DNA of 64,000 nucleotides, taken from NCBI GenBank assembly GCA_949285455.1, contig CASDXP010000005.1, positions 2,756 through 66,755 on the forward strand, in the 5' to 3' direction. The stretch is from an uncultured bacterium (GTDB taxonomy: Bacteria > Bacillota_I > Bacilli_A > RFN20 > CAG-826). The position numbers and the translations under genes are program-made. Shown here piece by piece: positions 3,766-58,747 of this stretch (positions are counted from its first letter, which is position 1; every line of letters starts with the position of its first letter). The notes beneath the pieces were generated by a model. It was given only the letters and a program-made list of their open reading frames with translations, was not told where the DNA came from and ran no database searches.

Positions 3766-5124
3766 GTGAAAAAAATCGTGTTTCCAAGAAAAATTTACGC
3801 TAAGTTGAAGGAGTGGAAAGAAACTTCTAAGGGAAGAAGCGCTCTTTTGATTGAAGGGGCGAGGCGAGTTGGAAAAACATTCGTTGCCACAACTTTTGCT
3901 AAAAATGAATTTTATGAATATGCTCTTATCGACTTTTCTATTGTAGATGATAAATTTAAAAACATTTTTAACGATTTGTCTCATATTGAAAACTTCTTCA
4001 GAGATTTATTTTTAGCCTTAGATCGTAAGCCTTTGAAAAAGGGAAGTTTAATAATATTTGATGAAGTGCAATTTTGCCCAAAAGCTAGGCAGGCTATTAA
4101 GGCTCTCGTCGCGGATGCAAGATATTATTACATCGAAACTGGTTCACTAGTGTCCATCAAAGAAAACACTAGAGATATTTTGCTACCTTCTGAAGAAGAA
4201 GCGATACAAATGCATCCGCTTGATTATGAAGAATTTTTATTGGCAATTGATCAGACTTACGAATTAGAGATATTGAAGGAAGCATATAAAAATCACCAGC
4301 AAATTTCTAATAATTTACATCAAAAATTTATGAAAAATTATCGTTTATATCTTTCCGTCGGAGGGATGCCGCAAGCGGTATTAGCCTATCTTACCAGCAA
4401 GGATTTTTTCCTCGTCGAACGTATCAAATCAAATATCTTAAAACTTTACGAAGATGATTTAAAAAAGATTGATCAAACTTATGGGACTTTTTGTTATAGC
4501 ATCTATTCTCAAATTCCTACAATGCTAACAAAACATTCTTTCAAATTCAAAAATTGTTCAGTTTCATCACGAGTAGATTCCTATGTTTTTAAAAATAGTA
4601 TGAATAAATTAATTGAATCAAAAATTGTCATTCCAGTTTATCGTTGTTTAGATCCGCAAGGCGGTTTTCTACTTAGCAAGGATGATTCGAATTTTAAATT
4701 ATATTTGCTCGATGTAGGTTTATTTACTTCTTTAATTTACGCAAAGGGGCATAACAACCAAGATAGTATCTATCAAAAATTAATTTTAGACGATACGCAC
4801 TTAAATCTAGGAATGCTATATGAAAACGCTATCGCACAAACTCTCGTGGCTAATAATTTCATTCCTTATTACTATCTTTGGATCGATTTAAATGGCAACA
4901 ACACCCCGCATTATTACGAGTTAGATTTCCTTGTTCAAAAGGGTTATAAAATTGTTCCCATTGAAGTAAAATCAAGTCGTAGTTTTGCGATAAAATCTTT
5001 AGATTTATTTGAGAAAAAATATTCTAAAAATATCTTTCATCGTTACTGTATTTCGCCCAAACCAATTAAATATGAAAGTAGTTTAACTTACTTGCCTTTC
5101 TATTTAAGTTTTTGTTTAGAATGA
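3766..5124 (+). CDS. AAA+ ATPase with C-terminal DUF4143 / PD-(D/E)xK-like nuclease-fold domain
   Basis: 452-aa ORF. P-loop GARRVGKT, Walker B IIFDEVQ. C-terminal ELDFLV..IEVKSS is a D..ExK motif. GTG start sits very close to a GGAGG, so the exact start is uncertain. Paralogous to 50168..51463. Confidence 0.65.
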   Translation: MKKIVFPRKIYAKLKEWKETSKGRSALLIEGARRVGKTFVATTFAKNEFYEYALIDFSIVDDKFKNIFNDLSHIENFFRDLFLALDRKPLKKGSLIIFDEVQFCPKARQAIKALVADARYYYIETGSLVSIKENTRDILLPSEEEAIQMHPLDYEEFLLAIDQTYELEILKEAYKNHQQISNNLHQKFMKNYRLYLSVGGMPQAVLAYLTSKDFFLVERIKSNILKLYEDDLKKIDQTYGTFCYSIYSQIPTMLTKHSFKFKNCSVSSRVDSYVFKNSMNKLIESKIVIPVYRCLDPQGGFLLSKDDSNFKLYLLDVGLFTSLIYAKGHNNQDSIYQKLILDDTHLNLGMLYENAIAQTLVANNFIPYYYLWIDLNGNNTPHYYELDFLVQKGYKIVPIEVKSSRSFAIKSLDLFEKKYSKNIFHRYCISPKPIKYESSLTYLPFYLSFCLE

Positions 5125-25235: not shown

Positions 25236-25829
25236 ATGATTGTTACAGTTAATATTTTAAAAAATAAATATCAAAATTATCGAAATGTATTAGATAAGAT
25301 TAAAAGAGAAGTAGATAATGGCACTTTAATACGCATTAAAAATGGCTTATATGAAACCGATAGAAATGTTGAACCATATTACCTTGCTTCTTCTATCGTT
25401 TCTCGTTCTTATCTAAGTTTTGAATGGGCTTTATCTATCTATGGTCTTATCCCTGAAAGAGTCTATACATTTACTTCAGCTTCTTATAACCTAAGAAAAA
25501 ATAAAACGTATGTTAATTACTTCGGCTGTTTTGAATTTTATGATGTACCTAAAAATATTTTTTATGAAGGAGTGAATTCTTATCTAGAAAAAGGTTACAT
25601 TTACAAAATTGCTACAAAAGAGAAAGCTATTTGTGATTGTTTGGCTAAGTGGCCAGTTGTCCATTCTATTAAACAACTTAAAATTTTATTGTTCGAAGAT
25701 AAAAGAATTTATGAAAACGAATTTAATAAATGTGATTTTAAAGCAATGTCGAACCTTGCAAGTTTGTATCATAAGACAAATTTAAAACTTTTAGTTGAAT
25801 TAATAAATAAGGAGTATTTATATGCCTAA
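25236..25829 (+). CDS. abiEi: AbiEi-family antitoxin/transcriptional regulator (type IV TA/abortive infection)
   Basis: 197-aa ORF. 8-nt overlap with the downstream nucleotidyltransferase gene. Sequence pattern ..IKNGLYET..YLSFEWALSIYGL.. is shared with the second copy at 57070. Confidence 0.65.
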   Translation: MIVTVNILKNKYQNYRNVLDKIKREVDNGTLIRIKNGLYETDRNVEPYYLASSIVSRSYLSFEWALSIYGLIPERVYTFTSASYNLRKNKTYVNYFGCFEFYDVPKNIFYEGVNSYLEKGYIYKIATKEKAICDCLAKWPVVHSIKQLKILLFEDKRIYENEFNKCDFKAMSNLASLYHKTNLKLLVELINKEYLYA

Positions 25830-26688
25830 CACACTTGAATTAATGCTTGCAAAATACGATTTAAAATCTCAATTAGACAAAGAAAACGCTATTAAGGAAA
25901 TAATGCAAGAAATTGCTTTAGCAGGCTTAGCAAACACTAATTTTTTCACTAAAGCGGCATTTTATGGAGGAACTTGTCTTCGCATTTTCTACGGTTTAGA
26001 TCGATTTAGCGAAGATTTAGATTTTGCACTTTTAAATAAAGATGAAAATTTCGATTTATCAAATTATTTCGAACCATTAAAAAATGAATTTAACATGTAT
26101 GGTATTAATCTAGATATTGAATATATAACGAAGAAAAATAGTGATGTGGAAAGTGCTTTTATTAGTGCGAATACGGCGACTCTTATGCTTCATTTTTATC
26201 ACGATAATAGCGAAGTAAAAAGTATCATCCATAATCAAAAAATTAAAATTAAATTTGAAATAGATATGAATAATCCACCTGGTGGTAAAGTAGAATTTAG
26301 ATATCAAACTCTACCGGAACCTTACGAAATTCAAATATTCGATGAATCTAGTTTATTTGCAGGAAAGATACATGCTATTTTATGTCGTAATTATCTTCAT
26401 CGTGTGAAAGGGCGCGATTATTTTGATTATCTATTTTTTATTTCTAGTGGCACGAAATTTAATCTTAAATATTTAGAAAATAAACTAAAAAATACTGGCG
26501 GGATAATCGATTCAAAAGAAGCGTTAACTTTAGATAAAGTGAAAGAACTTCTTTACGCCAAGTTTAGCCATGTCGATTATCCTTTAATGGTTGAAGATGT
26601 GTCTAAATTTATTCCTAATAAAGAACAATTGAAAACTTATAAAAAAGAATTATTTTTATCTACCTTAAATAAATTGGAATGCACGTAA
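25822..26688 (+). CDS. abiEii: AbiEii-family nucleotidyltransferase toxin (DUF1814)
   Basis: 288-aa ORF. Nucleotidyltransferase motif GGTCLRIFYGLDRFSEDLDF (GS/GG..DxD). Translationally coupled to abiEi. Confidence 0.7.
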   Translation: MPNTLELMLAKYDLKSQLDKENAIKEIMQEIALAGLANTNFFTKAAFYGGTCLRIFYGLDRFSEDLDFALLNKDENFDLSNYFEPLKNEFNMYGINLDIEYITKKNSDVESAFISANTATLMLHFYHDNSEVKSIIHNQKIKIKFEIDMNNPPGGKVEFRYQTLPEPYEIQIFDESSLFAGKIHAILCRNYLHRVKGRDYFDYLFFISSGTKFNLKYLENKLKNTGGIIDSKEALTLDKVKELLYAKFSHVDYPLMVEDVSKFIPNKEQLKTYKKELFLSTLNKLECT

Positions 26689-26741
26689 TTTTTCATTATT
26701 TCTTTATTGTTAAATAAAGTGTGATTATTTATCATAAAAAT

Positions 26742-27836
26742 ATGAAAAGGAAATTACTTCTACTCACAGCATTAATATTGCCGTTAGCAAGTTGCGATTT
26801 CTTTAAGCAATTTTTGCCTGACCCACCTTCACCTCCTAATCCCCCAGTGGAAGGTGATCAATTAAATATAATCGCCCTTGAGATGAAAGGAAGATATGGC
26901 GATAGTCTCATCATTAAATATAACGATTACGACATCTTAGTGGATGCTGGAACGGAAAGCGATGAAGATACAGTACAAGAGGCTTTAGTAAAATATGTGA
27001 CAGATAAAACAATCGATTTATTAATTCTCACTCATCTTCATAGTGACCACATCGGGGCGATGCAAGATGTAAGCTTTTTTAAATCGATTGGAATGAATGT
27101 TAAAACTTTCATCGATCCTGATACTTTACCAACTTCTAAAACGGCAGAAAATTATGTTGATATGCGCGAAGCTTTCGTTAGCGAGGGCAGCGATTACATT
27201 TCGTATTATGATTTAATTAATATTACAGAATATAAAAGAAAGATTTATTTGAGCGAAGAAGATAATATTTATCTAGAGTTCTTTGATACAGGCGCGGTAG
27301 CGAAACCAAAAGAAGAAGTAAGTGATTTAAATTCTTCGAGCATCGCTTGTGTTTTAAATTATTCTAATAGTAAAGTTTTCATGGCTGGTGATTTACCATC
27401 TAGCGAAGAAGAAGCTTTAATAAATAGTATGGATGCTTCGCAAAGAAATTATTTTAAAGAAGAAAATCAAGTGTTATATAAGACGTGTCATCACGGAAGT
27501 ATTACTTCCAATGGCGATGAACTTTTAACATATGTTAAACCAGATACCATTTTTTCTATGTCTGGTATTTTATCAAGCAATCAAGAAAACGCACCTTTAG
27601 AAGACCAACATCCTTACATAGCCGCTATTAACCGTATGGCTAAATATTCTAAAGATATTTATTGGACTTCCATTAACGGAACGACAGTTTTTTCTTCTAA
27701 AGGCGATATATTTACTAAAACATTCGCTGGCCGCACGGTGGATTATTACCTCGATGGTAAGATAGTAAGTAGAGAAGAAGAAAAAGATATTACTTTTTTA
27801 AATAGTGCTTGGTATAAACAATTAAGTCAGACATAA
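26742..27836 (+). CDS. Metallo-beta-lactamase-fold hydrolase lipoprotein (ComEC C-terminal-domain-like)
   Basis: Lipobox LPLASC. HxHxDH motif LTHLHSDHIG. ATG 26742 preferred (MKRKLLLLTALILPLASC). Confidence 0.55.
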   Translation: MKRKLLLLTALILPLASCDFFKQFLPDPPSPPNPPVEGDQLNIIALEMKGRYGDSLIIKYNDYDILVDAGTESDEDTVQEALVKYVTDKTIDLLILTHLHSDHIGAMQDVSFFKSIGMNVKTFIDPDTLPTSKTAENYVDMREAFVSEGSDYISYYDLINITEYKRKIYLSEEDNIYLEFFDTGAVAKPKEEVSDLNSSSIACVLNYSNSKVFMAGDLPSSEEEALINSMDASQRNYFKEENQVLYKTCHHGSITSNGDELLTYVKPDTIFSMSGILSSNQENAPLEDQHPYIAAINRMAKYSKDIYWTSINGTTVFSSKGDIFTKTFAGRTVDYYLDGKIVSREEEKDITFLNSAWYKQLSQT

Positions 27837-28066
27837 ATAAGACTTATAGTCTCAAAGTTGTTTTCATAGCTATTGCTTATTACTTTTTTATTTGCTTAGA
27901 TATATTTTATATCCGCATGTGAGCCTTATATTCGTAAATTAATAATTAAAAATACACATCATTTTTAATAATATTTTCTTTAAATTTGTGAAAAACTCAC
28001 AAAAACAAAAATAATATATGTAAAAATAAGGAATATTTTTCTATAATATATTAGGAGGTAAAAAAT

Positions 28067-29248
28067 ATGTTATTACAATTTTCAACGGTGAATTTTAAAT
28101 CATTTAAAAACGAAGTAACTTTAAATTTGGTAGCTAACAATTTTAAAGAACACGAAGAACGCATTATTTATTTTAATAATGAAAGAGTGCTGCCTCTCGT
28201 CGGTGTTTTTGGTGCGAATGCTTCAGGTAAAAGCAATTTATTAGAAGCTTTTTTCTTCGCTGTCAATTTGATAAGAAATTCTTTATCTTCTCAAACATCA
28301 GAAGAACTTTTTAATATAAAGCCTTTCATGTTTGATGATTCTAAAGATAATTCGCCTTCATCCTTCGATTTTATTTTTGTTAAAGATGGGGTGAAATATG
28401 AATATGGTTTTGCTATTGATAAGAAGTGTGTTATTGAAGAATATTTATATGTATATAAAAGCCAAAAACCATCTTTAGTTTTTGAAAGAAAAAATGTCAA
28501 TGAATATCATTTTAGAGATTATGCTCGTCACGAATTATCGCCGATTGTGTCAAGAACTCTGCCTAATAAATTGTTTTTATCGGTCGCCGCAAATTTCAAC
28601 GCCAAACTTGTCAAAGCTTGTTTTGATTGGTTTAAGAACGATATCAATTTCTATTTTGAACAAGCGATTGAGGAAAAGGCAATTCTAGATGCTATTAAAG
28701 ATGAAAAGATGAATAAATTTATCGCTGATTTTTTAAATCACGCTGATATCAATATATCAAATATTAAATGGCAAATTGCTAAAATAAATAATCAACAAAA
28801 GATTAATTTTAAGACCATGCATCTCATCAGAGCTAATGGGGAATTAAAAGAGTTTTCCTTAGATATAAAAGATGAATCACACGGCACACAAAAATTGCTT
28901 TCATACGCGCCTTTGTTTTATAAAGCGCTAAACTTTGGCGGAGTGGTCGTCATCGATGAGATAGATAATGCTATCCACGTTGAGCTCATGAAATACATCA
29001 TCTCGTTATTTAACGACCCGTTAATAAACAAAACCTCTGCCCAACTTATTTTCAACGCTCAAAATGCCCTCTTGTTAGATTTAGATATTATGCGTCGTGA
29101 TCAAATTTGTTTTGTCGAAAAAAACTTCCTTACTGGTGTTTCTTCTCTTTATTCGCTCGATGAATTTAAGGTGCGCCTGGATGATAAAGTACTAAAAAAA
29201 TATCTAGAAGGAAGATATGGAGCATTACCGAACATCATTTATGAATGA
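28067..29248 (+). CDS. AAA_15/AAA_21-type ATPase (AbiLi/RloA-like abortive-infection ATPase)
   Basis: 393-aa ORF. Walker A GANASGKSNLLEA. Walker B VVIDEIDNAIH. ABC/SMC-like architecture. Stop overlaps the downstream start (ATGAATGA). Confidence 0.6.
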   Translation: MLLQFSTVNFKSFKNEVTLNLVANNFKEHEERIIYFNNERVLPLVGVFGANASGKSNLLEAFFFAVNLIRNSLSSQTSEELFNIKPFMFDDSKDNSPSSFDFIFVKDGVKYEYGFAIDKKCVIEEYLYVYKSQKPSLVFERKNVNEYHFRDYARHELSPIVSRTLPNKLFLSVAANFNAKLVKACFDWFKNDINFYFEQAIEEKAILDAIKDEKMNKFIADFLNHADINISNIKWQIAKINNQQKINFKTMHLIRANGELKEFSLDIKDESHGTQKLLSYAPLFYKALNFGGVVVIDEIDNAIHVELMKYIISLFNDPLINKTSAQLIFNAQNALLLDLDIMRRDQICFVEKNFLTGVSSLYSLDEFKVRLDDKVLKKYLEGRYGALPNIIYE

Positions 29249-29864
29249 AATTATAGTTGGACAAAAGAGGCGAAAATTAAATTCTCGTCTCGATAAAAAA
29301 CTTATCCTCCTAGGTGTAGAAGGAAAAAATAGCACCGAAGCGTCCTATTTTCTTAATTTTAATCGCCTGCAAAATACTTATCGTATCAAAATCGCTAAGG
29401 GGCGAGATACGCATCTATTAAGTATAATAGATGAATTAAATTTGTGCCGTAAAGACACCGATTTTAAAAAAGGAGATTTAATGTATTGTATTTTCGACTT
29501 AGATAATGATCCATATAAAATAAAAGTAGCGGATGAGTTGATAAAAAAATATCGTAAGCAAGACATTATTTTTCTTTATTCTAATCCTTGTTTTGAATTA
29601 TTTTTTCTTTGGCATTTTATTTATTCGACGAAGCCTTATTCAAATAGTCGTAAAGTTATTACTGATTTAAAAAAACACATGCCATATTACGAAAAGAACA
29701 TTAATTGTTTTCACTCATTATTTTCTAAAATTGAAATAGGGATTAGAAACAGTGAAAACATAATGTTTTATCATAGTAGGCATAAACAGTTTGGTATTTA
29801 TTTAAATCCAGTAACTAAAGTTCATGTATTAGTAAAATTATTATTTTCTTTTATACAACGTTAA
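29241..29864 (+). CDS. RloB-like (TOPRIM-like) protein, AbiLii-like partner of the upstream ATPase
   Basis: N-terminal LILLGVEGKNSTEASYF matches the RloB signature (..CEGxKTExxYF). ATG 29241 overlaps the ATPase stop. The ORF track start at 29217 is also possible. Confidence 0.55.
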   Translation: MNEIIVGQKRRKLNSRLDKKLILLGVEGKNSTEASYFLNFNRLQNTYRIKIAKGRDTHLLSIIDELNLCRKDTDFKKGDLMYCIFDLDNDPYKIKVADELIKKYRKQDIIFLYSNPCFELFFLWHFIYSTKPYSNSRKVITDLKKHMPYYEKNINCFHSLFSKIEIGIRNSENIMFYHSRHKQFGIYLNPVTKVHVLVKLLFSFIQR

Positions 29865-30741: not shown

Positions 30742-31299
30742 CTATAACGTCAAAGTAAAAACAAAAGCAAATATAATTGCGTTAAGCGACGCTAAAATTG
30801 AATAAATTTCGATAGGAATACTTTTAATTTTTTCTTCATTTTGTTCTTTTTCCTCATTTTCTTCTTCATCACTTTCAATCGATTCTAAAGGTTTAGAAAT
30901 AGTTCGCCCTCTTCTTTTAAAATGTTTCATTCTTGTTTGCTGATATAAATATCTTGCTAGCCAAATTATCGTTACCGTAACAAAAAGCAAAACTATAAAA
31001 CTTGGAATATCTAGTGGTTCGTTGATATCAAGATTTAATTTGTAAGTATATTCAACGTAAGCAAAAAGGATGATATCTATGATTAAAATTATGATAGAAA
31101 TGGGAAGCATATAGGTATATTCTCTTTTAGTCATTTTCTTTCTAATTTGATCTTTAGTTAACGCTCCTACTTTATTATCGATATGAAGCCATTTCTTCTT
31201 AAATATTTCTATCAATATAGAGGGATATAAAATCTGAAATAAACTTAATCCTATAATTGCGTATAAATATGAATACATTGATGATTGCCTACCCTTCAA
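30742..31299 (-). CDS. Small polytopic membrane protein, paralog of 31303..31848 (orphan immunity-protein candidate)
   Basis: 185-aa ORF, 3-4 predicted TM helices. N-terminal ~55 aa are closely similar to the neighbouring gene, then diverge. Acidic C-terminal tail. Confidence 0.4.
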   Translation of the reverse strand: MKGRQSSMYSYLYAIIGLSLFQILYPSILIEIFKKKWLHIDNKVGALTKDQIRKKMTKREYTYMLPISIIILIIDIILFAYVEYTYKLNLDINEPLDIPSFIVLLFVTVTIIWLARYLYQQTRMKHFKRRGRTISKPLESIESDEEENEEKEQNEEKIKSIPIEIYSILASLNAIIFAFVFTLTL

Positions 31300-31302
31300 C
31301 GA

Positions 31303-31848
31303 TTAATACAATATTAGAATTGGTATGAGGATGAAACTATTGAACAAAATAATTGAAGTATATAGTGTCATTGCAGCATTTTTGCCTGATTCATTCAAAA
31401 CCCATTTCATTCTTTTCCATCTCTCTCGTGCAGTATGCCGCCCATGGGCTAAATAACCCCCATCGACGGCTTTTATATTTCTTCCAAATATTTTTTTTCT
31501 TGCTTCGTAATAAACGTCAATAATTGCAGAAGCAAGAACAGCAAAGACAAAAAGCAATATTATTATGGAAGCAGCTACTATTAATGGCTTATCCATTGTA
31601 ATTGTGTATTGAAAAGCACAAAAACAATAAATTAGAAGAGTAGCGTTTATTATTAGAATTGGCAAAGAAACTAGAGTTAGAAAAATATGTTCCCTTTTTC
31701 CCATTTTATTTCTTACTTCTCTTTTAGATAAAGTTCCATTTTCATTATCGATATGGAACCATCGTTTTTTAAAAATAGTTATCAACAAAATGGGGAATAA
31801 AATTAGAAATAAACTTAACCCTATAATTGTATATAAATATGGATACAT
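31303..31848 (-). CDS. Small polytopic membrane protein immediately downstream of the RHS toxin gene (cognate immunity-protein candidate)
   Basis: 181-aa ORF beginning 22 nt after the RHS stop on the same strand. Hydrophobic helices. Confidence 0.4.
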   Translation of the reverse strand: MYPYLYTIIGLSLFLILFPILLITIFKKRWFHIDNENGTLSKREVRNKMGKREHIFLTLVSLPILIINATLLIYCFCAFQYTITMDKPLIVAASIIILLFVFAVLASAIIDVYYEARKKIFGRNIKAVDGGYLAHGRHTARERWKRMKWVLNESGKNAAMTLYTSIILFNSFILIPILILY

Positions 31849-31869: not shown

Positions 31870-34800
31870 TTAATTTTTATTATTTTCTATTATTCCATAC
31901 ATTGATGAATTAAGGAAATCGCTTATTAAATTTTCGAATTTGTCTGAAATTATTTCTAGAAATTTAGGAGTTATAGATGTGCCTAACCTTGCTATTAGCC
32001 TCCCAAATATTTTATCCATTCCATTAGTGAGCTCTCCAAATATGTTAGTACTTATTCCGCTTACAACTCCGTTCATAAAAGAAGTAAAGAGATCCATATC
32101 AGTACCATACGTTAAAAAATCAGTAACTATTGAACCAATAATTTCGCCTGCAAAGGTAGCAACCACATCTACAATAAGCCTGGTGATTTTATAATATATA
32201 TGATTCAAACTAACAGCAGCAAATAATCCGCTTATAAATCCGCTTACAAATGCACCTAAATATTCTTGCCATGATGACCATTTCCATCTAGAAAAATCTA
32301 ATTGGTAATTGATTAGGTTCATTATGATATCTGTGACAAATAATGTAGCGACGCTTATTGCTGCAAATATTATTCCATATAGTAGTGCGGTTAATATCCA
32401 AATCCTTCCGCTTGAATCAACGTACTTAATAGGATTGTTTCTACAATAGATGTATAAATTTAAACCATTAAGTTGAGTTTTAGTTTCATCTAAGATTGAT
32501 AATTCATCACGTGAAATAAATCTAGCGAAGAAGGGACTATAATATCTTGCATTTAGATAATATAAATTAGATTCAGCGTCATAATAATAACTACGATATC
32601 TAAATGGGTTAATATTACCTATATTTTCTGAAGTGTGATTAATAACCTCGTGATTACCAAAAGCATCATATTCATAACTTGCAACTAGAGTTAAATCATC
32701 TTGCTTATAAATGTTTATAATGTCACCAAAAATATTTTTCTCATAAATGTAACTAGTGCCATTATGAGTAAAACCTATTAACGATTTATTCAAGTAATGG
32801 TATTCAATATCTTTCGAACTAGATTTTTCTCTTAAAATAAGATTATTTGATAAATAATATGTTGTTTTTTCACCATTTATTGTTTTTGAAGTTCTAATAC
32901 CGTTTAAATTATAAGTGTAACTAACATTATCAAAATTAATTAAATGCGATTCATTATTCCAAACGAAGGTATGATTATCATATGAAGTAAGTCTTCCTAA
33001 GGCATCGAAAGTTACATCTTTATCATTGACTCTTCTTAAGATATCTTTATTTGATGAAACGTTATAATAGAAGTTATCTACATGCGTGGAATCTAATAAT
33101 ATTTCATCTTCGTGAGTGTAATCATAAGTTGTTCTATTAACTAAATTACCATTTGCATCATAACTATACGTTATCGTTTTATTTAGTTCTTTATTATCTT
33201 CTCTAATTAAACGATCAACTTTATCGTATTTATAATAAGTATTACCAATATCACTTTTTACTTTGGTGACGTTAAGAAGTTTATCGTAATCGTAAGAATA
33301 ACGATGATAAACATTACTTCCAATAATATTTTCTAGCAATTTAATATTTGTAAGAGTCTTTTTGTCAGTGGTGAAATAATTTAAATTCTGTCTTAATAAA
33401 ACATTAGAATTAGTGTCCTTTATTTCGTTATATGTAAGACGACCAAAAACATCAGATTTTAAATTCGCTAAATAGTTAGATGAAGTGATAGAAGTTAATC
33501 TTAAGGTTTTACTATCATAAGAATAACTAGAAGATATAGTCTTATCGCCTAGATTGATACTTTCACTATCCAAACAATTTTTATTAGCGAAAGAATAAGT
33601 GTGAATAACATTAAGTTCATCGTAAGCATCAATTTCTTTAGTTAATCTATCGTAATCATCGTAAGTATATGAAATCGATTCTTCACCTTTTTCAATTTTT
33701 ATCAATCTTTTCTTATCATCATAAGTATAGTTAATAGTGGAATTATCGCTTCTCGTCGATTTTATTAAATTACTATCTTTATCATAAATTGAAGAAATCG
33801 TGTAGTTTAACGGACTAATCGTAGTGACTATCTTTTCCCCGTTAGTGACTAAATCGTCGCTGTAATTGCTAGTGTAGGCAAATGAATATAAAGACGATTC
33901 TCCAATTTTTATGTGGGTTTTACGGTGCTTATAATCATAAGAATAAGTATAAATTATTCCATCTTGCTCCATGGAAGTTAATAAATCCGATGTATAGTTA
34001 AATTTGATTGGATTAATTAAACCATCATCGTTATAAGAAAGATCCACTAGTTTTTGTGAATAGATATCGTAGCCTAATGATAATGTAGAATTATTTGGCC
34101 CGATGATAGTAGTAGGATATCTTGAATTAGAAAGATAATTAATCTGATAATCATCCTCATTTGTGAGTCTTCCTAATTCATCATAAACACTAGTTTTTTC
34201 TTGTTTTAAAGAAGGGGAATCTAAATTATATTGATAAGTTTTGTTCTTAAAACCTAATTCATCATAATTTATTTCTTTAACGTTATTTAAATTATCTATC
34301 GTACGAATTAATCGATTGTAATTATCGTAATCGTATTTCTTTTGAGCTGTAACACCGTAGATATCGTTAGAGACTTCCCTTACCAGATTTGAGTTTCTAT
34401 ATTCGTAATCTATTACGTTAGATGGGCTTAATTTTCTTAGTAAATGTAAGTCGTCATCATAAATATTAATTTCACCAATGACTTCATAAATTTTCACTTC
34501 TAAGTTAGTAAAGAAAGAAGAAGGAATTTCTAAATCAGAAGTAATTTTGATCGTTACCTTACTAACTAAATTATTGAAGAAAACCGGAATAGCTATTTGA
34601 GGGGTGATTCTATCGTAATGAATAGTGTAACTCGCTAGGTCGCCGGTCGCTATTATTTCAATCGATAATTCATTTTCATTATTGATATCAAAATTTGTTA
34701 TATTTGAAAAATCTATGATCGTGGCGGCAAGCAAATATTTTTTTGCAAAATCAATTTCACTTTTTAAAATTTGTAAAGTAAAACTACCATTTGAATAACT

Positions 34801-37800
34801 AACGTTTGTGTAGTTTTTAGTTGCAAGTAAATTTCTTTCTTCATAGCTTACATCGAATACGATATTTCTTTCGTTATAACTTTTATAAGAGGAAGAAGAA
34901 GTGAGCAAATCTAAATCTATGTTTTTTCGATAGATGATGTCACCGTTTTTATTGACGTAAACTGTCGTTTTATTATTGTTTATATTATCTTCAGCGGTAA
35001 TTTCAAAATTGTTCGCATTGACTCCCACATCTTCGATACTAGAATTGTCTACAATTTTATTTGTGATAAGGCCATCTTCAATACGAAGAGTTTTATTCGT
35101 GATATTGTATCCTTTAAATTTCATTTCGCTCCAAATGAAATTAATCTTTTCAGAGTTTGAATTCTCGACGGAGGTAAGATTTTTATAAGTATCGTAGGTA
35201 AATGTTAGTTTTTCCTCGTTTCCTTTATAGCCTTTAAAAATAATTTCATCTTGACCATCGCCTAATGTAAGAAGTCTAGTCATCTTAAATTTAGTTTCGA
35301 TTAGATTAGGATCGATGATGGAAGATAGAAGACCATTTTCATCGTAATTGATAGTAATTGTTTGCACAGATGAAGCAATTTCTACAAGGTTATCGTCGAT
35401 GTATTTAAGAGTTATTTCGTTTTCATTTAAATCGGAAATATAAATTAATCTTCCATAGTAATCAAATCCAAAGATTAAACCCTCTTCGCTTAAAAGGAAA
35501 TCTTGTGCATTATCTTTTTGCGCTAAGACTTCATTAGCCTTCAAAGTTCTATAATAATCGATATCTTTTTTATATCGATCGATTCTTTCTAATATGTCTT
35601 TGATAGAAAGTTTAATCGATTCAATTTGATGATTGTAACTTACGCTTGTGGAATTGAATGAATTAATTTGTGAGGCAGTTATTTGTTCTTCATTATTTAT
35701 CAGTTCACTAAAAACAGAATTCATCGTTTCCATTTGATTAGCGGTTTCTTCTTCCATTTGTTTTAAAGATAATAAGTATTGTTGAGCTTGTTTTGTTAAA
35801 TCTTTTAAAGTCGATTCATATTGTTCAATGGTACTTTCGATAGAAACTATATTTTCATTTTCATAGTAATCAGGTTTAATGTAAGTTTCATCGATATTTT
35901 TTGCATAATAATGATTTAACTCTAACTCGTTCGTAGCAATAGAATAAGCTTCCTTATTGTTAGTATTTAATTTGTAATAATATTTTGGTATGAGCGCAAA
36001 GTATTGTTCTTCTTTTATAGCGATAGAACAATTAATTAAGATAGGATTAACTTTTGTATTAGAGGATTTTAAATAATAACTGCCATTCTTATATTCGACT
36101 TCATTAGGAAAGTAGACAGCATATTGTAAAATTGCCTCATTCTGAGCATAAGTAACATCATTGAAATACATTGATAATAAAGAACGAACTTCGCTTTCAT
36201 CGTCAATTCTCGCCTTTGCTTGACCAATAAAACTAGTAATTTTAATTTGTCCGTTTTCATCTACTACCTTATCAATTGTTTCTAGCGGATCATCGTAAGT
36301 GAAGTGGTGGGTTAGTTTGACTTCTTTTTTCGAAGCCATATTTAAACTGTTCGCAGAGGAAATATAAGTAAGCCCATTAGAACTTATGACTTCGTAAGTT
36401 ACTTCGTGGACGTTACCGTGTCCATCTTTAAATTTATATTTTTGATCGCTATCTAGATAGACACTTTTATTGCTCACTAGATGATAAGAGCCGTCATTAT
36501 TTAAGTAGTACCATTTTTCGTAGAATGTATGAATATTTCCATTTCCATCAATGTAATGAATTTCATTTTGTAGTGCATCGATGTTATTTTGCTTACTTTT
36601 AATTAATCGAGAAGATAAGTTAAAAGCCCAACCTTTTGGAAGCCCCTTAATTTTATCTGCTGCTCTAAATAAATTTCTCGAATCATAATAAAAATTAAGA
36701 TTTACGCTCAATGCGTTAGAAGCGATGCTCGTCAGTGGAATTTCATAATGCAAATTACTTGTATATAAATTAGCCCTAAATGAAGAATTGTGACTAAAAT
36801 TATGCGAGATAATTACATTATTTTTATCATCACCAATACTTTGATATTTTGAAGTTATATTGGGGGTATTCTCACTATCGAAGCTAGTTTCATTAGTGAT
36901 AGCGATAAAAGGATTATTTTCTTTATTGTCAGCGACATATTCTAACGTTAATGTAATTGGTTCAATCGTTACATTTTCTTCTTTACGCTTAACGTCATCG
37001 TTAACGAAAGACGAAATATCGATTCGTAATAAATTATGAGAAGAATTGATAGGAACATTAGCGATGATAGTTTCACCATAAGACACTTTTATGTAATCGA
37101 GATCACTCACATTATCGCTAGCGTCAAATTTGATGTTAATAAACGATAAAAAATGTTCATTGCCTCTATCTTTTAATAATGAGGTAATTTCATCCATGTT
37201 GAGATTAATTTTTGTTAAGTTATTAACGCTATCTATGTAACCGCATATAGTTTTACCAGGATAGACATAATTATCGTTCGAATCTTTTATTTCTATAAGC
37301 GAAACATAGTTATATCTAAAATAAAGTTTAAGATTGACGCTTTGATTGGTGCTTAGATAAGCACTATTTGCTGTAATTATGATAGTTTTAGAAGATGTAA
37401 GATTATTAACTACTTGCACGTCAAAATCTTCACACGATATTTCCCCATCATTAGTCTCTAAATATGGTTCTAATATAAATCCATTATCAGTTCCAAAGAA
37501 ATTAACTTTTTTATCATCAACCTCCATTAATAGCGATGTAACAAAGCCAAGTGAGACTACACTATCACCAGTTTTTAAAGGTATTGTTAACAAGCACCCA
37601 TCGTTCGTAGATATAAGTGTATAGGCGGGACCAGGAATTGTGCCGCTTGTAGTTATTGTAGTTGGTCCATTGAAATAAACTATGGGAGATGGTCTGCTAG
37701 CAGTAGCAGAACTATTAACTCCATAAATTTGTTTATATATAGAGCACGTTAATGAAACAGAATCTTTATTTAAACTAAATGAAAAAGAATTATGTATAGT

Positions 37801-38106
37801 AGAACCATCACTAGCGATATAGGGAGTAGATATTTTTACATTTTTATTCAATGCTGAAATTGTTCGACTTTGTCCAGATAAGTTTTTGGCTAGAAGAAAA
37901 CTATTTTGAATAGGGACAACACTATTAGAAATATTAATAAAAGAAACTGGATGAGTGTATAATTTTATGTCAAGTTCATTAATTTCTTTAGAATAAATAC
38001 TAGATAATGAAAGTTTTAAGTCCTTATTTTTGTAATCGCCCATATAAGGAATATTCGCGTGATTCTTTTTTAAAAAGATGTCTTTAAAATTAAATTTATT
38101 TTGCAT
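31870..38106 (-). CDS. RHS/YD-repeat polymorphic toxin (2078 aa) with hydrophobic C-terminal extension
   Basis: Very long ORF. Many YD repeats (YTYDDKKRL, YTYDDYDRLTKE, YDANGNLVNRTTYDY). Terminal core ends in the ..NNPIKYVDSSGR.. motif, followed by a 177-aa hydrophobic tail. No N-terminal signal peptide seen. Confidence 0.85.
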   Translation of the reverse strand: MQNKFNFKDIFLKKNHANIPYMGDYKNKDLKLSLSSIYSKEINELDIKLYTHPVSFINISNSVVPIQNSFLLAKNLSGQSRTISALNKNVKISTPYIASDGSTIHNSFSFSLNKDSVSLTCSIYKQIYGVNSSATASRPSPIVYFNGPTTITTSGTIPGPAYTLISTNDGCLLTIPLKTGDSVVSLGFVTSLLMEVDDKKVNFFGTDNGFILEPYLETNDGEISCEDFDVQVVNNLTSSKTIIITANSAYLSTNQSVNLKLYFRYNYVSLIEIKDSNDNYVYPGKTICGYIDSVNNLTKINLNMDEITSLLKDRGNEHFLSFINIKFDASDNVSDLDYIKVSYGETIIANVPINSSHNLLRIDISSFVNDDVKRKEENVTIEPITLTLEYVADNKENNPFIAITNETSFDSENTPNITSKYQSIGDDKNNVIISHNFSHNSSFRANLYTSNLHYEIPLTSIASNALSVNLNFYYDSRNLFRAADKIKGLPKGWAFNLSSRLIKSKQNNIDALQNEIHYIDGNGNIHTFYEKWYYLNNDGSYHLVSNKSVYLDSDQKYKFKDGHGNVHEVTYEVISSNGLTYISSANSLNMASKKEVKLTHHFTYDDPLETIDKVVDENGQIKITSFIGQAKARIDDESEVRSLLSMYFNDVTYAQNEAILQYAVYFPNEVEYKNGSYYLKSSNTKVNPILINCSIAIKEEQYFALIPKYYYKLNTNNKEAYSIATNELELNHYYAKNIDETYIKPDYYENENIVSIESTIEQYESTLKDLTKQAQQYLLSLKQMEEETANQMETMNSVFSELINNEEQITASQINSFNSTSVSYNHQIESIKLSIKDILERIDRYKKDIDYYRTLKANEVLAQKDNAQDFLLSEEGLIFGFDYYGRLIYISDLNENEITLKYIDDNLVEIASSVQTITINYDENGLLSSIIDPNLIETKFKMTRLLTLGDGQDEIIFKGYKGNEEKLTFTYDTYKNLTSVENSNSEKINFIWSEMKFKGYNITNKTLRIEDGLITNKIVDNSSIEDVGVNANNFEITAEDNINNNKTTVYVNKNGDIIYRKNIDLDLLTSSSSYKSYNERNIVFDVSYEERNLLATKNYTNVSYSNGSFTLQILKSEIDFAKKYLLAATIIDFSNITNFDINNENELSIEIIATGDLASYTIHYDRITPQIAIPVFFNNLVSKVTIKITSDLEIPSSFFTNLEVKIYEVIGEINIYDDDLHLLRKLSPSNVIDYEYRNSNLVREVSNDIYGVTAQKKYDYDNYNRLIRTIDNLNNVKEINYDELGFKNKTYQYNLDSPSLKQEKTSVYDELGRLTNEDDYQINYLSNSRYPTTIIGPNNSTLSLGYDIYSQKLVDLSYNDDGLINPIKFNYTSDLLTSMEQDGIIYTYSYDYKHRKTHIKIGESSLYSFAYTSNYSDDLVTNGEKIVTTISPLNYTISSIYDKDSNLIKSTRSDNSTINYTYDDKKRLIKIEKGEESISYTYDDYDRLTKEIDAYDELNVIHTYSFANKNCLDSESINLGDKTISSSYSYDSKTLRLTSITSSNYLANLKSDVFGRLTYNEIKDTNSNVLLRQNLNYFTTDKKTLTNIKLLENIIGSNVYHRYSYDYDKLLNVTKVKSDIGNTYYKYDKVDRLIREDNKELNKTITYSYDANGNLVNRTTYDYTHEDEILLDSTHVDNFYYNVSSNKDILRRVNDKDVTFDALGRLTSYDNHTFVWNNESHLINFDNVSYTYNLNGIRTSKTINGEKTTYYLSNNLILREKSSSKDIEYHYLNKSLIGFTHNGTSYIYEKNIFGDIINIYKQDDLTLVASYEYDAFGNHEVINHTSENIGNINPFRYRSYYYDAESNLYYLNARYYSPFFARFISRDELSILDETKTQLNGLNLYIYCRNNPIKYVDSSGRIWILTALLYGIIFAAISVATLFVTDIIMNLINYQLDFSRWKWSSWQEYLGAFVSGFISGLFAAVSLNHIYYKITRLIVDVVATFAGEIIGSIVTDFLTYGTDMDLFTSFMNGVVSGISTNIFGELTNGMDKIFGRLIARLGTSITPKFLEIISDKFENLISDFLNSSMYGIIENNKN

Positions 38107-50167: not shown

Positions 50168-51463
50168 TTAGATACAAAACGCTGCGTAAAGAGGAATTGT
50201 TTTATTATCATCTTCAAAGGCAAAATTTTTACTCGATAGTTTGATAGCGTAAGCGGGCTTATAAGCATCCATATAAACTTTTAATCTTTTAGCTTTGCTA
50301 TTATCAGCGGATTTGACTTCGATGGGAATAAGTTTACCTTCACGTTGAATGATAAAATCTATTTCCGCTCCACGGTCGGATTCCCAATAGTAGGTGTTAT
50401 ATCCGTTGATGGAAAGTTGGACGTTAGCGTAGTTTTCAGCCATACCTCCTTTGAAGTCATTTAATTCCGGAGTCATATAAAAAATATCGTCAGGAGTTAA
50501 ATCTTTCTTCGCGGAAAGTAAACCTAAATCCGATACGTAAATCTTGAAGGCATCGATGTCACGATAATTTTCTAAAGGTTTTTTAATTTGTTCGACTTTA
50601 TAAACTTTCGATACGATACCAGTTAAACTAAGCCATTCGATAGCGTTTTCAAGCTCGGAAGCTCGACCGCCTTTTTTGACTAACTTATATTGAAAACGAG
50701 TATTTTTCTTAGAGAGTTGGACCGTAATGTTATCGTAGACGAGTCTAGTTTTTTTAATTTCATTTAAGTTGTTATATTTGCTCATATCATCAAGATAACT
50801 TGTAAGGATATTATCTTGCGTATGGCGTACAAGAATATAGTCTTTCGTCTCCACGAATTGTCTGACGCACTCTGGCATTCCACCTACGATGAGATATTGG
50901 CGGTAGAGTTCCATCGCCTTATTGTGAAGAGCGGAAGGCATAGGTGAATTAGTGTTAAAATACTTTTTAATTTGCGTTACAAGATCATCTTCTTTCATCG
51001 CGATCATAAATTCTTCCATGTCCATAGGATACATAGTTTTCATATCGACTTTACCGACGGGAAAAGAAAATTTTGAACGATTGACCGCCACACCCAAAAG
51101 ACTTCCAGCGACGATAATGTGATAATCAGGGGCCTCTTCGCAAAAATATTTTAATGAGGTCAAAGCTCTTTCACAAAGTTGTATCTCATCGAACACGATG
51201 AGCGTTTTTTCTTTGACGATCGTTTGCCCGGCAATATGAGATAAAATCGGTATCAAATATGTAGGGCTAATATTTTCTTCAAAAGTTTCATTTAGCTTGG
51301 GATTAGTTTCAAAATTAAAGTAGGCGACATTTTCATAATGGCTACGCCCAAACTCTAAAATAGAGTAGGTTTTACCTACTTGCCTCGCTCCTTGTAAAAT
51401 GAGAGGCTTACGATATTTGCTTTCTTTCCACGCTTCTAAAAAGTCGATGATTTTTCTATACAT
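50168..51463 (-). CDS. AAA+ ATPase with C-terminal DUF4143/PD-(D/E)xK-like domain (paralog of 3766..5124)
   Basis: 431-aa ORF. P-loop GARQVGKT, Walker B IVFDEIQ. C-terminal EIDFII..IEVKSA is a D..ExK motif. Confidence 0.65.
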   Translation of the reverse strand: MYRKIIDFLEAWKESKYRKPLILQGARQVGKTYSILEFGRSHYENVAYFNFETNPKLNETFEENISPTYLIPILSHIAGQTIVKEKTLIVFDEIQLCERALTSLKYFCEEAPDYHIIVAGSLLGVAVNRSKFSFPVGKVDMKTMYPMDMEEFMIAMKEDDLVTQIKKYFNTNSPMPSALHNKAMELYRQYLIVGGMPECVRQFVETKDYILVRHTQDNILTSYLDDMSKYNNLNEIKKTRLVYDNITVQLSKKNTRFQYKLVKKGGRASELENAIEWLSLTGIVSKVYKVEQIKKPLENYRDIDAFKIYVSDLGLLSAKKDLTPDDIFYMTPELNDFKGGMAENYANVQLSINGYNTYYWESDRGAEIDFIIQREGKLIPIEVKSADNSKAKRLKVYMDAYKPAYAIKLSSKNFAFEDDNKTIPLYAAFCI

Positions 51464-57069: not shown

Positions 57070-57819
57070 TTGTTTAATTTAGGTATGAAAGTCTTACCAA
57101 TTTTATTTTCATATGATGATATAAAAGATAAATATCCAAACGTTAATGGTTTCTATTCGTTTTTGAAGCGTTCGATAAAAAAAGGCACTATCAAGCAAGT
57201 TAAAAAAGGACTTTATGCTTTAATAGATCCATCTACTGGAAACATATATGCGACGAAGTTTCAAGTCGCTAGTGCTCTTTTTGATGATTCTTATTTTTCA
57301 TATCATGAAGCTTTGGAGTATTATGGCTTAGCATCGCAATCATTTATTTCACAATTTATTTATCTAAGTAAAAATCACGCAAACGATTTTGAATTTGAAG
57401 ACGTTATTTACCATTCAAAAATAAGTCGATGCAATTTAGAAATTGAAGATCATATGAAGGAAAATGCTATAAGAGTAGTGTCTTTAGAACGTGCGATAGT
57501 GGATTCAATCGACAATTTTCATTTAAGTGGTGGGCTAGAAGAAGTGGAACTTGCGTTAGATAGTTGTCCTAAACTTGATACTCGAAGAGTGATGTCACTT
57601 CTAAAATTTTATGATAAAATTTTCCTATATCAAAAAGTAGGCTATCTATTCGAAAAACATTTTGGTGACGCTATCCCGCGATCATTCTACGAAGAATGTT
57701 CATCTAAAATAGGCACTAAAAAAGTGTATTTAGAGTGTGCGCCTGGAAAATCAAAATTTATATCCAAATGGAATTTATTTATTGAAGACAAAGGAGAAAC
57801 ACCTAATGAATTATTCTAA
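57070..57819 (+). CDS. AbiEi-like antitoxin (second copy)
   Basis: 249-aa ORF. ..VKKGLYALID..YFSYHEALEYYGL.. parallels the AbiEi at 25236. Overlaps the downstream nucleotidyltransferase pseudogene by 14 nt. Confidence 0.55.
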   Translation: MFNLGMKVLPILFSYDDIKDKYPNVNGFYSFLKRSIKKGTIKQVKKGLYALIDPSTGNIYATKFQVASALFDDSYFSYHEALEYYGLASQSFISQFIYLSKNHANDFEFEDVIYHSKISRCNLEIEDHMKENAIRVVSLERAIVDSIDNFHLSGGLEEVELALDSCPKLDTRRVMSLLKFYDKIFLYQKVGYLFEKHFGDAIPRSFYEECSSKIGTKKVYLECAPGKSKFISKWNLFIEDKGETPNELF

Positions 57820-58747
57820 AATTTACGTAAGTGAAATTTCAAAGAGAACAGGATTCATTGCAAGTAACGTCGAAAAAGCGATCCGACTCCTCGACGTTCT
57901 AGATTTTATTTTTAATAAAAGTAGTTTTTGCGATGCTCTCACCCTCAAGGGAGGCACGGCAATTAATCTCATATACACTAATTTAAAGCGTCTTTCTGTG
58001 GATATTGATTTGGATTACCATCGTTATTTAGAGAAAGAAAAAGTCGAAAAAGATAGACAACTTATCATTGGAGAACTTGATGAGTATATGAAAAAAGAAG
58101 GCTATTTTGCTAAGTCTGTTAGAGATAGCGCAATTTCATCATCTAGAATTTAGGCGTACTTAAACACCTTTGGAAACAATGACAATATAAAAGTGGAAAT
58201 TAATTTTATTAATCGAATTAGCCTTTATCCTACTATTACAACCATCGTTAATTATTTTAATAAAGAAGTGCGCGTTAATGTATTAAGAAAAGAAGAATTG
58301 TACGGAATGAAAATTGCCGCTTTGATTGATAGAAGTAAGCCAAGAGATTTATTTGATATTGCTTATCTAATCGATAATTTAAAAGATGTAGACATGTGTA
58401 TTCTTGCAAAAGCAGCTATTTTTTATCTCTCGCTAGACGGCATTTATACTATCGACAATTCAATTTGTGATGGAATCAAAAGCATAACTTATCAAGCGGT
58501 AAAAAAAGAATTATTGCCGGTATTAAAAAAAGGTGAAAGATTCGATGTTGTTATTGTTAAGGAAAAAGTTATAAAAAATGTTTGTTCCCTATTAACTAAG
58601 AATCAAGACAACTTATCTTATTTAAAAGAATTTTCCGAAGGAAATTTTAACCCATACATATTATTTGATAGTAAGCTGCTAATAGAGCAACAAAACATCC
58701 CATGGCTCAATGGAAAATTTCAAATATTAAATAATTATCCAAATTAG
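57806..58747 (+). pseudogene. AbiEii-like nucleotidyltransferase interrupted by an in-frame TAG (58151..58153)
   Basis: ATG 57806 after AAGGAGA. N-terminal part carries the nucleotidyltransferase motif LKGGTAINLIY..RLSVDIDLDY. ORFs 57737..58153 and 58193..58747 are in the same frame, separated only by one TAG codon. Confidence 0.5.

Follow-up and report, generated by a model that had tools for sequence, protein, structure and literature searches.

Do two overlapping genes that an uncultured, low-GC bacterium carries in its chromosome form an anti-phage system, and if so, how might their products act together? The genes lie at 28067–29864 of a 64,000-nucleotide stretch of DNA, referred to here as the window (positions 2,756–66,755 of contig CASDXP010000005.1 in assembly GCA_949285455.1, placed in CAG-826 of the Bacillota_I). 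An initial annotation, made without database searches, had likened them to the lactococcal abortive-infection genes abiLi and abiLii. Our analysis leaves very little doubt that the pair belongs to the AbiL/RloAB family and is apparently intact. We further consider it likely that the two genes constitute a self-contained anti-phage AbiL module, as this is the best explanation for the locus.

Two overlapping genes of the AbiL family

The first gene, abiLi (28067..29248; + strand, as for all features below unless noted), encodes a 393-residue ATP-binding cassette (ABC) ATPase of the Rad50/SMC/OLD type. Its product matched Pfam AAA_21 over the whole profile (8.8e-29) and AAA_23 at 1.3e-08 (36.1 bits, cutoff 27), while SMC_N (27.5 bits) fell under its cutoff of 40 and the only NCBIfam match was a far sub-threshold one to RecF (21.5 bits, cutoff 172). 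Of the two Pfam families first suggested for the ATPase, AAA_21 was thus recovered and AAA_15 was unmatched. The second gene, abiLii (29241..29864), encodes a 207-residue predicted Toprim-type nuclease effector for which RloB (PF13707) was the sole Pfam family matched (4.4e-29, profile positions 1–195 of 195); NCBIfam returned no family for it. PADLOC models name the genes AbiLi (PDLC02335, 2.5e-85) and AbiLii (4.9e-19), so that both the RloB assignment and the AbiLi/AbiLii arrangement of the initial annotation are borne out. The proteins matched the first PADLOC model pair (PDLC02335/02337), and the second pair weakly or not at all. Two findings had been named beforehand as counting against the assignment, a second open reading frame (ORF) from an unrelated family and a transporter ATPase with a permease; the profile searches produced neither. 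The locus therefore presents what is expected of AbiL: an AbiLi-type ABC ATPase gene first, an adjacent, co-directional gene for an AbiLii/RloB protein second, and intact motifs. Membership here is defined by the PADLOC and Pfam models carrying the AbiL name rather than by direct comparison with the lactococcal prototype, and no Lactococcus record was among the plasmid matches listed in tblastn searches with the pair proteins. AbiL is not a new system, and a standard defence-finder run would call this copy. Pfam, PADLOC and DefenseFinder-type catalogues list it already, and as a system this copy adds little to them.

Both families are large. Homologues of abiLi made up 5521 of 8000 scored candidates, and an exhaustive HMMER search for the abiLii family returned 2458 cluster representatives at E<=1e-3. 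The exhaustive search was needed because the family is too divergent for a word-indexed homology search, which found one AbiLii relative only. The AbiLii model was the best match for all 70 RloB relatives collected for alignment.

The two reading frames overlap by 8 nt, ATGAATGA (29241..29248), which hold the abiLii start codon and the abiLi stop codon (TGA, 29246–29248). This overlap is consistent with translational coupling, and it agrees with the initial description of an ATPase gene running into a second ORF of about 207 residues. In a mechanical ORF list, abiLii had instead been started at ATG 29217, which has a Shine-Dalgarno-like GAAGGAAG immediately 5' of it and gives a 215-residue product with a 32-nt overlap. 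The start at 29241 is favored because the first methionine of a 45%-identical orthologue (L003) aligns with window M9. Since both starts overlap abiLi, the choice leaves the interpretation unchanged. Upstream of abiLi, a Shine-Dalgarno-like AGGAGGT (28053..28059) was read from the sequence 7 nt before the start codon. A promoter scan of the 230-nt spacer 5' of the gene gave 12 sites, against 12.7 expected from shuffled sequence, and for this reason no promoter is claimed. At the other end, abiLii (stop codon 29862–29864) and a convergent ZIP gene overlap at their 3' ends by 14 nt (29851–29864; 8 nt in a related species), leaving no space for an intergenic terminator. Short opposite-strand ORFs at the pair (62–69 residues) found no support. 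An alternative genetic code with TGA read as tryptophan is unlikely, with ORFs of 2078, 800 and 706 residues running uninterrupted under table 11.

The motifs of AbiLi were judged against an alignment of 16 sequences that are 43–56% identical to the window protein. Invariant in it are G49, N51, A52, G54 and K55 of the Walker A motif GANASGKS (residues 49–56; 28211..28234), E270, S271, G273 and T274 of an ABC signature-like ESHGT (residues 270–274; 28874..28888), and D297, E298, D300 and H304 of the segment VVVIDEIDNAIH (residues 293–304; 28943..28978), which comprises Walker B, D-loop and H-loop. The Walker B motif proper, VVIDEID, spans residues 294–300 (28946–28966). The protein length and both Walker motifs are as initially reported. 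Q76 and a C-terminal block from R370 to P388 are also invariant. Compared with most relatives the window protein is about 25 residues shorter, the difference lying in a variable loop after residue 241. The best matches of its AlphaFold2 model (predicted local distance difference test score, pLDDT, 80) in a Foldseek search of the Protein Data Bank (PDB) were Rad50/SMC heads (~1e-11), followed by the retron/Septu ATPase PtuA (~1e-10). There was no ABC_tran match and there were no coiled-coil arms. The C-terminal tail (residues 368–393) is invariant, yet it has low confidence in the model; such a tail would fit an interaction surface.

AbiLii has all of the residues that are invariant in the 70-sequence RloB alignment, namely E27, G28, E33, Y36, D86, D88, S114, P116, E119, H125 and Y150. 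The first four fall within LILLGVEGKNSTEASYF (residues 20–36 of the 207-residue product). The AlphaFold2 model is of high confidence (pLDDT 94.4; predicted template modelling score 0.88) and has the order b1-a1-b2-a2-b3-a3-b4, with strands b1, b2, b3 and b4 at residues 20–26, 47–52, 80–86 and 109–115, respectively. The invariant glutamate of the VEG motif (Glu27 codon, 29319..29321) is thereby placed just past b1, and the invariant DxD (Asp86-Leu-Asp88 codons, 29496..29504) at the end of b3. A second invariant RloB cluster, the SNPCFE...H block with S114, P116, E119 and H125 (29580..29617), follows b4. The predicted placement of the glutamate and the DxD is that of the Toprim arrangement and is consistent with a Toprim fold; the same placement has been described for RloB (PMC12065111).

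Searches for a structural relative of AbiLii returned little. Sequence searches of the PDB, made both with AbiLii alone and with a profile of the 70 RloB sequences, gave nothing meaningful, and Foldseek comparison of the model with the PDB gave nothing better than generic Rossmann-like folds, none of them below E=0.01. Among viral structures, the sole Foldseek match was a myovirus protein labeled 'RloB-like protein'. An hhalign comparison of the RloB profile with a profile of the P2 Old C-terminus gave a probability of 0.8%, the Old profile being too shallow for a fair comparison (11 sequences, 65–100% identical). None of these searches picked up a link to Toprim or OLD proteins. No solved structure seems to exist for an RloB-family protein, as neither sequence searches nor Foldseek detected one in the PDB.

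Conservation of the pairing and its loss in sister strains

The two genes travel together far beyond this genome. Scanning genomes with the AbiLi alignment recovered 80 loci (best hit 41% identical) spread over Bacillota, Pseudomonadota, Actinomycetota, Cyanobacteria, Spirochaetes, Planctomycetes and one archaeon. In 70 of the 78 loci with room downstream, the next downstream ORF is RloB, and the RloB gene usually either abuts the ATPase stop codon or overlaps it, by 1 or 4 nt. The two partners co-diverge: pairwise identities among the ATPases correlate with those among the RloB proteins at r=0.81, a value reached by none of 999 Mantel permutations. No common family was found among the immediate neighbors of the pair in these loci (124 neighboring ORFs), and this heterogeneity indicates neither a third component nor an obligatory restriction-modification (R-M) context. 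Relatives also occur on mobile elements, with AbiLi-like ATPases in 184 plasmid records and RloB relatives, by tblastn, in 7 plasmids and 3 phage records. Some of the ATPases (30–31% identical) are carried by small enterobacterial plasmids of 3.7–5.3 kb from E. coli, Salmonella, Enterobacter and Klebsiella, where they occupy a large part of the coding capacity.

Sister strains of the window organism show what happens when the pair is broken. Eight metagenome or metagenome-assembled-genome contigs (L101–L108), each from a different sample, share one identical junction, GTGTGATTATTTATCA|AAAAAATATCTAGAAGG. It marks a deletion of ~2.46 kb, roughly window 26734–29193, between A-rich, imperfect microhomologies. 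Missing as a result are a gene for a lipoprotein of the metallo-beta-lactamase (MBL) fold and all of abiLi except its last ~55 nt, so that abiLii directly follows abiEii. Three contigs (L103, L104 and L105) retain an intact orphan abiLii. In two (L101 and L102) the orphan is frameshifted by an additional A in a run of six (29466..29471), and in three (L106, L107 and L108) by a 35-bp deletion (29374–29408). Apart from these lesions, the orphan copies differ by only a handful of point differences. Wherever abiLi is kept, abiLii is intact. An independent assembly that is otherwise 97.5% identical to the window (L001, ERZ16268175 scaffold_272) has both AbiL genes 100% identical, with an RHS gene that differs by 6% and a ~0.63-kb deletion within abiEii (window ~25858–26485). 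Different strains have therefore lost different defense modules at this site. Although the series is a small sample and all of its assemblies are metagenomic, it shows that strains can survive losing AbiLi while their abiLii reading frame is intact, and that orphan abiLii is then quickly lost. It fits neutral decay and selection against a toxin alike.

Proposed mechanism and competing explanations

AbiL is a validated lactococcal abortive-infection system whose prototype acts after phage transcription (PMC13064643), and it has been grouped with systems that combine an ABC ATPase with a Toprim protein (PMC11464382). The kinship with OLD-like split systems in the initial annotation is likewise in line with the literature (PMC11464382, PMC13064643, PMC10440598). 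By analogy with PARIS and OLD, we lean towards a mechanism in which an ATPase regulator governs a Toprim nuclease. For the window pair, we infer an AbiLi:AbiLii complex, a nuclease activity with its substrate, an infection trigger and phage resistance as the outcome. AbiLi would bind and control AbiLii and act as the infection sensor, and AbiLii, a stand-alone RloB domain of ~200 residues, would be a minimal metal-dependent Toprim-type nuclease. Phage infection would change the state of AbiLi, whereupon AbiLii would cut nucleic acid. Host or phage RNA, including tRNA, is a reasonable guess for the target because PARIS AriB and P2 Old are tRNases (PMC11464382; bioRxiv 10.64898/2026.07.10.737580); by a different analogy it could also be DNA, as for Gabija GajA. 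The cut would halt phage development late, giving an outcome of the abortive-infection type.

Comparison with characterized systems supports the placement of the pair and supplies the analogies. AbiL, encoded on plasmid pND861 of L. lactis (Deng et al. 1999), likewise consists of two co-directional, overlapping genes for an AAA_21 ATPase and then an RloB protein, whereas core genes flank the window copy, which is part of an uncultured low-GC bacterium's chromosome. PARIS is the best mechanistic template, having a separate ABC ATPase sensor (AriA) and a Toprim-type tRNase (AriB, DUF4435) (PMC11464382). The AriA model does match the window AbiLi (1.1e-26), over the residues and profile positions that the Pfam AAA_21 match covers, but AbiLii matched neither AriB nor DUF4435, and both window proteins (393 and 207 residues) are considerably smaller than their PARIS counterparts. 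P2 Old, class 1 OLD proteins and Gabija GajA combine an AAA_15/21 ATPase with a Toprim nuclease, and the VEGKTE motif of P2 Old resembles VEGKNSTE of the window AbiLii; a profile of AbiLi matched the Thermus OLD structure 6p74 weakly (E=0.0068). In OLD and GajA, however, ATPase and nuclease are fused in one polypeptide, while here there are two separate ORFs, and Gabija requires the GajB helicase, whereas no UvrD-like helicase adjoins the window pair. Septu differs in its partner, which is the HNH protein PtuB rather than RloB, and PtuA models were matched only at E values of at least 1e-4. Other pairings of an ABC ATPase with a small Toprim protein include MADS mad3/mad4 (DUF4276), HEC-01, PDC-M12 and the RloB-type effectors of Menshen NsnC. 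AbiLi matches PDC-M12A (2.3e-17), mad3 (1e-10) and HEC-01A, and some RloB relatives match HEC-01B, mad4, PDC-M12B and DUF4276 weakly. The AbiLi/AbiLii models nevertheless score far higher, and the extra components of these systems are not adjacent to the window pair.

Several points weigh against the proposed anti-phage mechanism. The AbiL mechanism is described as unsolved in the literature, including reviews up to 2026 (PMC13064643, PMC10802264). Published structure predictions set AbiL apart from PARIS, so the PARIS analogy may not transfer. In the experiments of Dy et al. 2014, AbiLi gave no neutralization of AbiLii toxicity (PMC3985639); the same paper reports that E. coli is poisoned by AbiLii of F. 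nucleatum, and that L. lactis AbiLii was not toxic. Three of the sister-strain contigs hold an intact orphan abiLii without abiLi, and together with the lack of neutralization this speaks against a simple version in which the ATPase is an antitoxin. Finally, the window AbiLii deviates at two columns that are at least 90% conserved in its subfamily, D58H and W121F. These changes are old lineage traits rather than recent damage, because the 45%-identical orthologue has both of them.

Some of the same observations allow a different division of labor. The RloB nuclease may be harmless on its own and need AbiLi as an activator or targeting subunit, in contrast to the caging seen in PARIS. The intact orphans that follow clean deletion of abiLi, the absence of published antitoxin activity for AbiLi, and the lack of a Foldseek-detectable relative of RloB among solved structures all support such a role, which we regard as a tentative possibility, with the balance tipped against it. 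If it were true, the two orphan frameshifts would represent the fast neutral decay of a useless gene and not selection against a toxin. As a natural experiment, if a small one, the sister strains bear on whether the ATPase holds the nuclease back or makes it work. The compact window copy (393 + 207 residues), whose folds are predicted with high confidence, would be a reasonable choice for biochemical work on how AbiL acts.

A dedicated role in defense is what separates the proposed AbiL module from an addiction or stabilization module of the toxin-antitoxin style, in which AbiLi would simply keep a toxic AbiLii restrained. Pairs of an AAA ATPase with a Toprim_OLD/RloB protein do appear in the type II toxin-antitoxin network of NetFlax, where such pairs were validated as toxin and neutralizer (PMC10440598). 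The toxicity of the F. nucleatum protein points the same way, as do the two independent frameshifts in orphan abiLii after loss of abiLi. Against these stand the three intact orphans in the eight-contig deletion lineage, by which loss of AbiLi is not immediately lethal, the failure of AbiLi to counter toxicity in its one direct test, and the harmlessness of the L. lactis AbiLii. The prototype AbiL moreover has a phage-resistance phenotype, and the window locus is flanked by core genes of a chromosome rather than carried on a plasmid in need of stabilization. On balance, we consider an addiction module an unlikely account of the pair.

It is a decidedly poor bet that the pair is instead a decaying or inactive remnant, as the deleted abiLi and frameshifted abiLii of the sister strains, along with D58H and W121F at well-conserved positions, might suggest. 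Both window ORFs are full length and keep all of the invariant catalytic residues, the pair is 100% identical in the independent assembly in spite of a 6% difference in the RHS gene, and the two substitutions are shared with the 45%-identical orthologue.

The RloB family takes its name from Campylobacter type I R-M loci (PMC10440598; PMC10802264), where C. jejuni RloA/RloB combine a member of the same Pfam family (PF13707) with an ABC ATPase partner, and one plasmid homologue of AbiLi is annotated as RloA. An R-M accessory that works only with hsd genes is nonetheless very improbable for the window pair, which lacks flanking hsd genes. Its neighbors are ClpB, AbiE, the MBL lipoprotein, ZIP, membrane proteins and RHS, with no hsd or other R-M gene adjacent. 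No R-M family was among the top families listed in a PADLOC scan of all 54 window ORFs, and R-M-type domains are rare in the 124 neighboring ORFs of the related loci (ResIII in 2). The idea that AbiLi is a housekeeping protein of the ABC class, be it the ATPase of a transporter or a repair factor resembling RecF, RecN or SMC, beside an unrelated downstream gene can be practically dismissed, since the weak N-terminal P-loop similarity to SMC_N (27.5 bits) and RecF (21.5 bits) and the Rad50/SMC head matches reflect only the common ABC head fold, there is no ABC_tran match, permease or coiled-coil arm, and the downstream partner is conserved and co-evolving. The adjacent ZIP gene was considered as a permease partner and rejected, as it is a conserved core gene on the opposite, convergent strand.

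The chromosomal neighborhood

The order of genes around the AbiL pair is NrdD, a metallophosphoesterase, ClpB, AbiEi/AbiEii, the MBL-fold lipoprotein, AbiLi/AbiLii and the convergent ZIP gene, followed by two paralogous membrane proteins, a 2078-residue RHS/YD-repeat protein, a flavoprotein resembling FprA and a Big_2 surface protein. AbiEi (25236–25829; PADLOC 4.8e-55), AbiEii (25822–26688; PADLOC 1.1e-95) and the RHS gene (31870–38106, - strand; Pfam RHS_repeat 38.4 bits, cutoff 22) confirm that the pair lies beside AbiE and an RHS gene, as had been noted at the outset. The window is ~30% GC, with no compositional break or foreign-DNA signature around the pair, and an Rfam scan found one tRNA only, far from it.

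Contigs of a related species (L003–L006, compared over window 19825–42237) have the same gene order but are without AbiE and without the RHS block. Protein identities to the window are 96% for NrdD, 90% for ClpB, 87% for ZIP and 83% for the FprA-like protein, and 70%, 54% and 45% for the MBL lipoprotein, AbiLi and AbiLii. The shared order combined with the low AbiL identity indicates that the pair is a long-time resident of a conserved chromosomal site. By these comparisons, it has undergone divergence or exchange at a far higher rate than its neighbors. AbiE and RHS are later insertions flanking it. The site looks like a conserved chromosomal hotspot whose defense cargo is fast-evolving or exchanged, and no evidence supports a functional linkage between AbiL, AbiE and RHS.

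The gene for the MBL-fold lipoprotein (26721–27836; lipoprotein signal LPLASC) adjoins AbiL in the sister species and is lost together with abiLi in the deletion strains. It was considered as a part of the system and rejected, given its lipoprotein signal, the absence of enrichment beside AbiL pairs elsewhere, and a sub-threshold match to the Pfam Anti-Pycsar family Apyc1 (24.3 bits, cutoff 50).

The RHS gene is the most variable one between near-identical strains (93.8% nucleotide identity; 76 of 1126 residues differ). Past the core-end motif, the C-terminal ~190 residues of its product are strongly hydrophobic and have no above-threshold Pfam match; this region is possibly a membrane-inserting toxin tip. 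Two paralogous ORFs of ~180 residues that follow RHS on the - strand (31303–31848 and 30742–31299) encode multi-pass membrane proteins and could be the cognate immunity proteins.

Elsewhere in the window, a candidate second AbiE-like locus lies at 57070–58747. Its first ORF (57070–57819) encodes a protein 25% identical to the first AbiEi (blastp 4.2e-08), and the ORFs at 57737–58153 (138 residues) and 58193–58747 (184 residues) may be a split AbiEii. The PADLOC scan of the window ORFs counted two members for the AbiEi model and two for the AbiEii model. It also counted three members of PDC-S01, a candidate single-gene system; the position of the third was not located, and the other two are at 3766–5124 (+ strand, 1.3e-93) and 50168–51463 (- strand, 6.5e-174). 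With regard to these PDC-S01 matches, AAA_14/DUF4143 ATPases are found in the same neighborhood among relatives of the window.

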